Of a DNA stretch of 14,230 bases, positions 12,854 through 14,074 are shown one piece after another (the first letter of the stretch is position 1; every line of letters starts with the position of its first letter). The stretch comes from a virus. The position numbers and the translations under genes are program-made. The stretch lies in IMG/VR virus record IMGVR_UViG_3300012971_000145. One strand, 5' to 3'. The notes under the pieces are model-generated. The model ran no database searches, was not told the DNA's origin, and saw only the letters and a list, made by a program, of their open reading frames with translations.

Positions 12854-12992
12854 TGTCGTTGCCCTGTTCTGGGCTACCAAGATCGTCAACAACCCGCCCG
12901 TGGGCCGGCGACAGGTATGGGTAAATCTGTTCGCCCTGTGGCTCAACATGACGTTTGGGTTCTGGAATTTGTTGGATACATATTGGAATTAG
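12816..12992 (+). CDS. small membrane protein, about 58 aa
   Basis: An internal ATG 12816 follows AAGGAGGAGG (12795-12804). The protein is hydrophobic ('LGTLISVVALFWA', 'VWVNLFALWL'). The track ORF 12726.. has an Arg-rich out-of-context N-terminus. The start is uncertain. Confidence 0.4.
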   Translation: MLLWVNCLGTLISVVALFWATKIVNNPPVGRRQVWVNLFALWLNMTFGFWNLLDTYWN

Positions 12993-13062
12993 GGGCGGTC
13001 GGATAACGGGAATCCGCCAGGTTTGCAACCTGGAAATACGAGTTCGATTCTCGTCCGCTCCA
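12992..13062 (+). tRNA. tRNA-Ala (anticodon TGC)
   Basis: I folded the cloverleaf by hand. The acceptor is GGGGCGG/CCGCTCC with the G3:U70 wobble that is the Ala identity element. The D-arm is GGAT/ATCC. The anticodon stem CCAGG/CCTGG carries the loop tTTGCaa. The T-arm is ACGAG-TTCGATT-CTCGT. The discriminator is A. No CCA is encoded. Confidence 0.8.
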
Positions 13063-13242
13063 CTCCCATATGTCTGAAGAGCAACCCGGCGAGGGACCAA
13101 AAGGCCGGTTCTCGATATTCACCCTGGAGTTGCCCAAGCTCAACCTTGCGTTGCTGAGGGTCTTTGGGTCGCTATGGCTCTTGGAACAGGAACGCAAGCG
13201 ATTGCACCAGCCGACGCACAAGCCCCGGCGGGGTCACTGGAA

Positions 13243-13313
13243 GGGCGGTTAGTTTAACGGAAAAATGGATGCCCTACACGCATCTGACGTGGGTTCGACT
13301 CCCTCACCGCCCA
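13243..13313 (+). tRNA. tRNA-Val (anticodon TAC), atypical features
   Basis: The acceptor GGGCGGT/ACCGCCC pairs perfectly. The D-stem GTTT/AAAT is weak. The anticodon stem GATGC/GCATC carries the loop ccTACac, which has C rather than U at position 33. The T-arm GTGGG-TTCGACT-CCCTC has one U-U mismatch. The discriminator is A. Confidence 0.55.
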
Positions 13314-13335
13314 TTTCAACTTTTGGAGCAGTTGC

Positions 13336-13632
13336 TTGTTGAAAAATATCATCATAAAGTCGTTGGCTCTGCTGAATGCCGTGGAGGGGGTAATACATAT
13401 TGTGACCGCCTGCATTTCGTTTTACGGGATGTGGGACTTGGGCGTGTGGGACTGGCGGGTGATGACCGCCCCCACCTTTGACCTGTTTCTGGGAGCCGTT
13501 TCCCTTATAACAGGTTACGTTCTTAACAAGATCGACTGGAAGCACACCTGCTTCTTCCCAAAGGACCAGAAAGATGAAAAGTTACAGGGAGTTCACCCTA
13601 ATTCAATTGAAGATGGCGACCGAACCCCGTAG
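13336..13632 (+). CDS. membrane protein, 98 aa
   Basis: TTG 13336 lies 7 nt after TGGAG. It has two hydrophobic helices. Confidence 0.5.
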   Translation: MLKNIIIKSLALLNAVEGVIHIVTACISFYGMWDLGVWDWRVMTAPTFDLFLGAVSLITGYVLNKIDWKHTCFFPKDQKDEKLQGVHPNSIEDGDRTP

Positions 13633-13867
13633 AATGGGCTTCGTAGAGGGTGCCTGGTACTTTTGGGATAATAAAAGCCATACGGTGCCGGTCAAAGCAC
13701 GGCAATATTTGGGCATTAAGAACGAACGGGCTTACATGCTCGTGGAGGGCAGCCAGACGGGCATCCCGCTGGATGAATGCCGTCCGCTTGCCGAGGAAAT
13801 GTGGCCCCCACTTGATCGTGACCTGGAGCGCTGGATCAAGGAATATCCAGAATACCCGAACGGCTAA
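13574..13867 (+). CDS. hypothetical protein, 97 aa
   Basis: ATG 13574 follows AGGACCAGAAAG. It overlaps the previous gene by 59 nt, so the start is uncertain. Stop is TAA 13865-13867. Confidence 0.45.
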   Translation: MKSYREFTLIQLKMATEPRRMGFVEGAWYFWDNKSHTVPVKARQYLGIKNERAYMLVEGSQTGIPLDECRPLAEEMWPPLDRDLERWIKEYPEYPNG

Positions 13868-13879
13868 CAAGGAGGTTTT

Positions 13880-14002
13880 ATGCTAGGGTTTACCGTGCTG
13901 GGGTTGGAACCCATCTGGTTCGTTCTGATTGCCCTCGTGCTTCTCTATATCATCCTTACGGTGATCGACTACACCAATAAGCCAAAGGGCGATGATAACT
14001 GA
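13880..14002 (+). CDS. 40-aa single-pass membrane peptide (MLGFTVLGLEPIWFVLIALVLLYIILTVIDYTNKPKGDDN)
   Basis: It is not in the ORF track, which lists only longer ORFs. A strong AAGGAGG (13869-13875) sits 4 nt before ATG 13880. The TGA stop abuts the tRNA-Ile 5' end. Confidence 0.4.
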   Translation: MLGFTVLGLEPIWFVLIALVLLYIILTVIDYTNKPKGDDN

Positions 14003-14074
14003 GGCCCTGTAGCTCAACGGTGAGAGCGAAGGTCTTATAAACCTTAGACGGTGGTTCAACTCCACCCAGGGCTA
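14003..14074 (+). tRNA. tRNA-Ile (anticodon TAT)
   Basis: The acceptor GGCCCTG/CAGGGCT has a G1·U72 pair. The D-arm is GCTC/GAGC. The anticodon stem AAGGT/ACCTT carries the loop cTTATaa. The T-arm GGTGG-TTCAACT-CCACC pairs perfectly. The discriminator is A. Confidence 0.7.

Follow-up and report, generated by a model that had tools for sequence, protein, structure and literature searches.

Huge phages are known to encode as many as 67 tRNAs and 15 aminoacyl-tRNA synthetases (aaRS) (PMC7162821). Isoleucine tRNAs with a UAU anticodon have been described in Mycoplasma mobile, in which AUA is read without lysidine (PMC3575796), and in Mycobacterium mucogenicum, in horizontally acquired, HNH-associated tRNA clusters of GC-rich mycobacteria (PMC6582537). 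Phage tRNAs with anticodon-loop changes conferring resistance to host anticodon nucleases have also been documented (PMC10264068). We investigated a cluster of three tRNA genes on a 14,230-nucleotide stretch of viral DNA (IMG/VR record IMGVR_UViG_3300012971_000145; the whole stretch is hereafter referred to as the window). The interpretation that we favour, with good but not full confidence, is that these are three functional tRNA genes of a soil huge phage that would support translation, and that the oddities of the valine tRNA are recent substitutions in this strain. The finding is real but ordinary, phage tRNAs and the tRNA/aaRS sets of huge phages being well established.

The window resembles the huge-phage complements described by Al-Shayeb et al. 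2020 (PMC7162821) in its probably very large genome context, a syntenic relative being carried on a 670 kb contig, and in having tRNAs that are distinct from cellular tRNAs and dispersed, along with aaRS-derived genes, among ORFans. One of its proteins, similar to the major vault protein (MVP), is 40% identical to proteins of 462 and 735 kb genomes in the same collection, but the GC content of the window lineage is 55–57%, versus 24–32% in the surroundings of those homologues. The window shares with M. mobile a UAU anticodon that would read AUA without lysidine. It shares with the mycobacterial gene, which belongs to a probably phage-derived tRNA cluster, a GC-rich setting in which AUA is rare (PMC6582537), and, as in these HNH-associated clusters, the 670 kb relative carries an HNH gene, some 6 kb downstream. 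Unlike both bacterial genes, the UAU gene of the window lies on the phage itself, and protein genes separate the tRNAs of the window, which do not make up a compact array.

The ARAGORN search of the window yielded three tRNA genes on the plus strand and no others. The same three were recovered at full length (model positions 1–71 of 71) by cmscan with the Rfam model RF00005, for which the gathering score is 29 bits:

12992–13063, plus strand: tRNA-Ala(UGC), 63.5 bits, E-value 4e-12, anticodon at 13024–13026
13243–13313, plus strand: tRNA-Val(UAC), 58.4 bits, E-value 1e-10
14003–14074, plus strand: tRNA-Ile(UAU), 74.2 bits, E-value 5e-15, anticodon TAT at 14036–14038

These are three genuine tRNA genes, far beyond chance matches. 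The initial annotation, made from the letters of the window, had placed an Ala tRNA, an Ile tRNA with a UAU anticodon and a Val-like tRNA within 12992–14074; the two programs concur on all three tRNAs and on the UAU anticodon. A lower-threshold Rfam scan of positions 12850–14230 revealed no further RNA. All three tRNAs have U8, GG in the D-loop and a TTCGA or TTCAA T-loop; U33 is kept in tRNA-Ala and tRNA-Ile and replaced by C33 in tRNA-Val. The CCA end is encoded in none of the three, as had been noted: read directly from the sequence, the bases following A73 are CTC, TTT and TTC.

Relatives of the locus were identified through a neighbouring protein family and the 98-amino acid (aa) neighbour of tRNA-Val. 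They form three further clades: L005/L013/L014/L015 (hereafter the L005 clade), L006, and L010/L011/L012 (hereafter the L010 clade), the 670 kb contig being placed in the last of these by gene layout. All three clades carry Ala-UGC, Val-UAC and then a tRNA at the Ile position, in the same order as in the window, although the neighbouring protein is only 63% identical between clades. Nine compensatory pairs were found across clades, four in tRNA-Ala, three in tRNA-Val and two in tRNA-Ile. Because the trio is kept in diverged relatives with these nine compensatory stem changes, the comparison indicates that the tRNAs are under selection for their fold, and are not chance look-alikes or relics. 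In tRNA-Ala, the predicted G3:U70 wobble pair was observed (G at 12994, T at 13059), with A73 at 13062; the pair and A73 are invariant across all clades compared. The eight variable sites of the Ala alleles are all accounted for by the four compensatory pairs, and the unpaired positions are unchanged.

The tRNA-Ile has the anticodon loop CUUAUAA, with a U36-A37-A38 context that is reported to be a strict requirement for t6A37 (PMC13276492). It has A73, C4:G69, U12:A23 and a conserved G1·U72, and is of the isoleucine type with a UAU anticodon; its minimum free energy (MFE) fold is a clean cloverleaf. The gene anticodon is TAT rather than CAT in the window, L006 and the L005 clade, all of which lack the lysidine-type C34; UAU is kept on a common tRNA body in the window and L006, and also on a much divergent body in the L005 clade. 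Among sequenced phages, the sole matches to this tRNA were T4-like CAU tRNAs, labelled Met-CAT by ARAGORN. A pattern consisting of the T-arm and acceptor of the window tRNA with either UAU or CAU matched 11 contigs in IMG/VR, all from T4-like phages of about 85–170 kb, with a CAU anticodon in every case and an encoded CCA in all but one (10 of 11). The same pattern matched none of the cellular genomes of 185,579 GTDB species. The T4-like CAU tRNA, of the lysidine-type tRNA-Ile2 class, is 78% identical to tRNA-Ile over the whole tRNA, with an identical acceptor stem (1–7, 66–71) and T-stem, but the window tRNA has U34, needing no lysidine, rather than C34, has G1·U72 rather than G1:C72, and has no encoded CCA.

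The tRNA-Ile of the window therefore compares with the phage tRNAs as one member of a family that otherwise carries CAU, and looks like an Ile2-class body in which C34 has been changed to U34. Such a change would free AUA decoding from lysidine synthesis by TilS, and the locus would illustrate how, in a phage, an Ile2-type tRNA can pass from CAU to UAU and so shed a dependence on the TilS of the host. The literature bears out the initial annotation in that UAU tRNA-Ile is uncommon in bacteria (PMC3575796, PMC6582537), but its statement that such tRNAs are usually supplied by phages finds no support in this sample, in which the closest phage tRNAs all have CAU. Literature searches for published surveys of phage Ile-TAT tRNAs gave nothing usable.

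The anticodon loop of tRNA-Val is C32-C33-U34-A35-C36-A37-C38 (CCUACAC), with C33 at 13274, and its T-stem contains a single mismatch, U50 (13290) with U64 (13304), flagged "v" by cmscan. Both features, already reported in the initial annotation, are evident from direct reading and from the cmscan alignment. The tRNA retains A35, C36, A73, seven Watson-Crick acceptor pairs, an intact T-loop and G18-G19, with no indels; A35, C36 and A73 with a regular acceptor helix are the main valine determinants (PMC9976931). Its D-stem is weakened, to three A-U pairs and one G·U. The orthologues in the L005 clade and L006 have U33 (loops CUUACAC and UUUACAC) and G50·U64. Because these two diverged clades have U33 and G50·U64, C33 and U50 are best taken as derived substitutions of the window's strain, and not as features of the lineage. 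The 71-nucleotide sequence is identical in four assemblies from different samples (the window, L001, L017 and L018), which rules out an assembly error as the source of C33 and U50; L017 has the same allele despite differing from the window at 15 nearby positions.

The MFE fold of tRNA-Val lacks the T-arm (z of −1.75, versus −3.8 and −2.6). The cloverleaf has an energy of −23.4 kcal/mol, 1.2 above the MFE, the values for the orthologues being −24.9 and −23.1, and the restoration of G50 yields a gain of only 0.7 kcal/mol. A strongly destabilised tRNA was ruled out by this comparability of cloverleaf energies. Across clades, the changes in tRNA-Val comprise the three compensatory pairs, two wobble changes and one non-pair, the 50:64 of the window. 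Judging from these features, the tRNA probably still works, possibly less efficiently. The C33 allele is unusual and may be slightly deleterious, neutral or adaptive. The proposal that this tRNA might be a suppressor does not hold, UAC being a sense anticodon and A35, C36 and A73 being intact; the proposal of a decoy finds no support, the oddities being strain-specific, with U33 and G50·U64 in two diverged clades. U33 is almost invariant in elongator tRNAs, C33 being known mainly from eukaryotic initiators (PMC5041475). If charged and used, this naturally fixed C33 elongator-type tRNA would constitute a useful natural test of the essentiality of U33.

Several of the relatives depart further from the window in their tRNAs. 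In the L005 clade, the Ile(UAU) tRNA (L005:13268-13340, identical in L013, L014 and L015) has C1:G72, G8 rather than U8 and a 9-nucleotide D-loop; its Rfam score is 40.4 bits, all its stems pair, and UAU and the position in the cluster are kept. In the L010 clade, the sister clade closest to the window, the Val(UAC) tRNA (L010:2305-2377, L011:484-556 and L012:160-232) keeps the acceptor stem and flanks of the window tRNA, with entirely different D, anticodon and T arms; it forms a perfect cloverleaf and has a TCCGATT T-loop, with C55 instead of U55. It looks as though the interior of the gene has been replaced by recombination. The Ile tRNA of the same clade is that of the window with a 21-nucleotide insertion in the anticodon loop (L010:3177-3270, insertion at 3211-3231; L011:1356-1449; L012:1032-1125; identical in three samples), together with one D-loop change and a compensatory change from A28:U42 to C28:G42 in the anticodon stem. 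The insertion forms a 5-bp hairpin, the predicted fold consisting of the anticodon stem, a 4-nucleotide/8-nucleotide internal loop, the 5-bp hairpin and a 6-nucleotide loop. Depending on the points at which the 21 nucleotides are removed, the remaining loop is CUUAUAA (Ile) or CUUUUAA (Lys, the intron call of ARAGORN). An archaeal or eukaryal bulge-helix-bulge (BHB) intron was rejected, as there is no 4-bp central helix between CUUU and GAUA, and no copy of the insertion was found as a repeat in the loci compared. The insertion may either disrupt the gene or be removable; the L010 clade shows no reduction in AUA usage. Variable minus-strand genes lie by the Ile tRNAs of the relatives, and a homing endonuclease as the cause of tRNA turnover is unsupported, because these genes have no Pfam match. 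Short evolutionary distances have sufficed for tRNA genes at this one syntenic locus to be altered by mutation, interrupted or exchanged.

The window forms part of the 17.1 kb metagenomic contig L001, from which it differs by 11 single-nucleotide polymorphisms, none of them in the tRNAs. Nearly all genes lie on one strand, 4-nucleotide start/stop overlaps are common, and Shine-Dalgarno cores precede 15 of 33 genes, against a background of 8.7%; these motifs and overlaps rule out a eukaryotic giant virus origin. Phage-only PHROG families were matched by four of 10 window proteins. Three genes are of particular use for the assignment of the element:

5826–6584, plus strand: catalytic core of a bacterial-type seryl-tRNA synthetase (SerRS), 252 aa, matching TIGR00414 positions 151–400 of 418, below the equivalog cut-off
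7507–10161, plus strand: MVP-like protein, 884 aa, with an MVP shoulder and a Vault_3 repeat
10619–11332, plus strand: GluRS/GlnRS-type Anticodon_2 domain with a C-terminal DUF2934, 237 aa, no catalytic domain

The anticodon-domain protein has an 86% identical homologue on the 669,797 bp contig, on which each gene of the window has its counterpart in the same order; AIRS, PTH2 and HNH genes follow further along that contig, and there are few Pfam hits among its genes. Across 50,697 phage records, the MVP-like protein had matches solely in three uncultured huge phages (462 kb and 735 kb), the alignments covering more than 90% of the protein; it may be a conserved huge-phage protein. The 462/735 kb phages are AT-rich, with no local synteny and no nearby tRNAs, and the relationship is therefore distant. 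No capsid or terminase gene was found in the DNA read. On the basis of the PHROG matches, the syntenic 669,797 bp relative and the MVP-like homologues, we conclude that the sequences point to a GC-rich soil huge-phage lineage, the size estimate resting on the relative; the mobile element that the initial annotation had supposed to carry the tRNAs is thus most probably a huge phage. No relatives were found in IMG/VR with the SerRS core, the MVP-like protein, the pyruvyl transferase or the invariant 5' half of tRNA-Ala, and GTDB genomes contained no relative of the neighbouring protein family. By these searches, the locus represents a lineage of GC-rich soil huge phages with no members in IMG/VR or GTDB.

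The SerRS core lacks the N-terminal tRNA-binding coiled-coil, and its start overlaps the stop of a cpYpsA SLOG gene by 4 nucleotides; the 670 kb relative has a core of equal length, and identity to the SerRS genes of jumbo phages is about 40%. The Anticodon_2-DUF2934 protein has seven homologues in a collection of 5.8 billion proteins, all of them in this phage lineage. A fourth tRNA, Gly-GCC (69 bits), is located about 900 bp upstream of window position 1 (L001:762-835), and also at L002:119-192.

The neighbourhood of the cluster is translation-related, with the SerRS core, the stand-alone anticodon-binding-domain protein, the upstream tRNA-Gly and, in relatives, PTH2 downstream, and the tRNAs would top up or sustain decoding capacity during infection. 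Codon usage was determined for the 5,496 codons of L001 (GC at third codon positions, 0.756); the shares are those of the element's own genes:

AUA: 8% of Ile codons in L001 (4.0 per 1000), 12–13% in the sister clades
GUA: 7% of Val codons in L001, 6–10% in the sister clades
GCA: 4% of Ala codons in L001, 7–9% in the sister clades

Each of the three tRNAs carries U34 and is matched to the A-ending codon (GCA, GUA or AUA), which is the rarest of its family in the element. This pattern fits the supply of isoacceptors of which a GC-rich host would make little and, equally, a broad tRNA complement. The upstream Gly-GCC, by contrast, corresponds to the most frequent Gly codon (GGC, 60%).

A number of observations weigh against translation support by three functional tRNAs. 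The element itself uses the cognate codons rarely (3–7 per 1000), which in itself does not point to high demand. UAU tRNA-Ile is a poor substrate for E. coli-type IleRS, and AUG misreading is possible unless IleRS and the ribosome are adapted (PMC3575796); for the Ile(UAU) tRNA to function, the IleRS of the host or phage would have to be permissive and U34 might have to be modified, neither of which was seen. In tRNA-Val, the residue lost to C33 is almost invariant (PMC5041475), and the Rfam score is about 8 bits lower than that of the orthologues (58.4 versus 66.6–66.7 bits). Finally, individual tRNAs may be dispensable, given the insertion in the Ile tRNA and the replaced Val body of the L010 clade.

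The strongest alternative, to which we would give about one chance in four were it expressed as odds of any kind, is best described as a serious minority view: that tRNA-Val is decaying under relaxed selection, C33 and U50·U64 being the first steps towards a pseudogene, while tRNA-Ala and tRNA-Ile are still functional. A degenerate copy, as the initial annotation had also suggested, is possible. The two derived departures from near-universal tRNA features, the deficit in Rfam score, the loss of the T-arm from the MFE fold with its weaker z and the reduced D-stem are all as decay would predict, and the sister clade that has lost this Val body and interrupted its Ile gene demonstrates that tRNA loss or replacement occurs in the lineage. 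However, the three compensatory pair changes on the same lineage show that the fold has long been under selection, the cloverleaf is equal in energy to those of the orthologues, the anticodon, A73, T-loop and G18-G19 are intact with no indels, and the allele is unchanged in L017, a strain with 15 differences nearby.

It is rather unlikely that the cluster serves in counter-defence, with tRNAs replacing host tRNAs hit by anticodon nucleases and C33 of tRNA-Val constituting an adaptive escape from a nuclease. The nuclease-evading phage tRNAs of PMC10264068 are, like the tRNA-Val of the window, phage-borne with a non-consensus anticodon-loop residue, and such tRNAs are also reported in two further papers (PMC11555353, PMC12409363). 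Four assemblies stably share the C33 allele, tRNA turnover between sister clades is fast, as expected in an arms race, and the pattern search of 185,579 genomes indicates that the phage tRNA bodies are unlike cellular tRNAs. In contrast to the tRNAs of PMC10264068, the substitution in the window affects position 33, which is near-invariant; it is confined to the strain instead of being shared by the clade, and no cognate nuclease has been identified for it. Conservation of C33 is lacking, U33 being retained in two diverged clades, and C33 is accompanied by U50·U64, which has no obvious link to anticodon-loop recognition. No nuclease targeting tRNA-Val is known for the host, and for gamma-toxin, the one nuclease with data, U33C left cleavage unaltered (PMC2275089). 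The link to RNA-repair enzymes drawn in the initial annotation proved weak, the genes concerned being sub-threshold Pfam matches 10–12 kb away, with no RNA ligase or kinase in the window:

778–1191, plus strand: candidate 2H phosphoesterase with two HxS/T motifs, HISV and HITI, and a sub-threshold match to Pfam 2H-SAK; it also matches phrog_12204
2883–3362, plus strand: candidate Cys-phosphatase with the CX5R motif CTAGMGRS, sub-threshold match to DSPc

An extended form of this explanation, slightly less probable still, invokes an arms race with tRNA-targeting host defences in which C33 would be an adaptive escape and the Val swap and Ile insertion of the L010 clade would be escape or regulatory solutions; the 21-nucleotide insertion, which adjoins an anticodon stem strengthened by the compensatory change, might then be a new short phage tRNA intron, removed by a non-BHB route.

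Translation support by functional tRNAs, our preferred interpretation, would also require the tRNAs to be released from their transcripts, and the surroundings of the cluster are tightly packed:

11360–11386, plus strand: hairpin resembling an intrinsic terminator, 11 bp, 8 of them G-C, with a T-run
11419–12510, plus strand: pyruvyl-transferase gene, probably co-transcribed upstream of the tRNAs
12515–12853, plus strand: CpXC-like gene, likewise probably co-transcribed upstream of the tRNAs
12816–12992, plus strand: 58-aa membrane open reading frame (ORF), predicted transmembrane segment; its TAG (12990–12992) shares its G with G1 of tRNA-Ala
13070–13252, plus strand: 60-aa ORF, no transmembrane segment; its TAG (13250–13252) corresponds to nucleotides 8–10 of tRNA-Val
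13336–13632, plus strand: 98-aa small membrane protein, predicted transmembrane segment, starting 22 nucleotides past tRNA-Val; homologues 85–91% identical
13574–13867, plus strand: 97-aa soluble protein, conserved, no family match and no transmembrane segment
13880–14002, plus strand: 40-aa single-pass membrane ORF with an AAGGAGG Shine-Dalgarno motif; its TGA (14000–14002) abuts G1 of tRNA-Ile

The tRNAs had been described as lying among tiny membrane-protein ORFs, which applies to the 58-, 98- and 40-aa products, with predicted transmembrane segments, but not to those of 60 and 97 aa. The 1-nucleotide overlap of the 58-aa ORF with tRNA-Ala is kept in L005/L013/L015 and L010/L011, and in L006 the TAG directly abuts G1. 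In the 60-aa ORF, clade indels are in multiples of three, and the 670 kb contig has a 60-aa gene in the syntenic position; the ORF is absent from the L005 clade, in which the gap between Ala and Val is 17 nucleotides.

The hairpin at 11360–11386 is likely, from its predicted structure, to be the upstream boundary of the tRNA transcription unit; no comparably strong terminator was found between 11419 and 14230. The tRNAs, which are on the coding strand, packed against the small ORFs with no strong terminator between, would most likely be part of a polycistronic RNA, from which host RNase P and a 3' processing enzyme would cut them, CCA being supplied by the CCA-adding enzyme. Any one transcript could yield either an excised tRNA or the product of the upstream ORF, but not both. 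Once cut by RNase P, the upstream mRNAs would lack an intact stop codon. That the tRNAs act mainly as RNase P and RNase Z signals controlling the small membrane ORFs, as in mitochondrial tRNA punctuation, is improbable: the stops of the 58-, 60- and 40-aa ORFs do overlap, sit inside or abut tRNAs, and a strong terminator or promoter is absent between ORFs and tRNAs, but a processing signal would have no need of conserved anticodons (UGC, UAC and UAU), identity elements and T- and D-loop consensus, tight gene packing is general in this genome, and Ala and Val are adjacent in the L005 clade with no ORF between.

Identity between the window and the L013 clade is mosaic, at 88% across the MVP-like gene (window 7505–10145) but only 71–75% over the following genes and the tRNA region (window 10949–13882). 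The sharing of tRNA-Ala alleles departs from the protein tree, L010 having the allele of L005 and the T-arm of the window being that of L006. Together, the mosaic identity and the allele pattern suggest recombination between lineages. The 40-aa ORF is hypervariable: L017 departs from the window at 15 positions, and 14 of these lie at 13900–14001, a 4-nucleotide indel being included; across clades its sequence is not conserved and a hydrophobic helix is retained. The adjoining tRNA-Ile is identical in L017 and the window despite this hypervariability.

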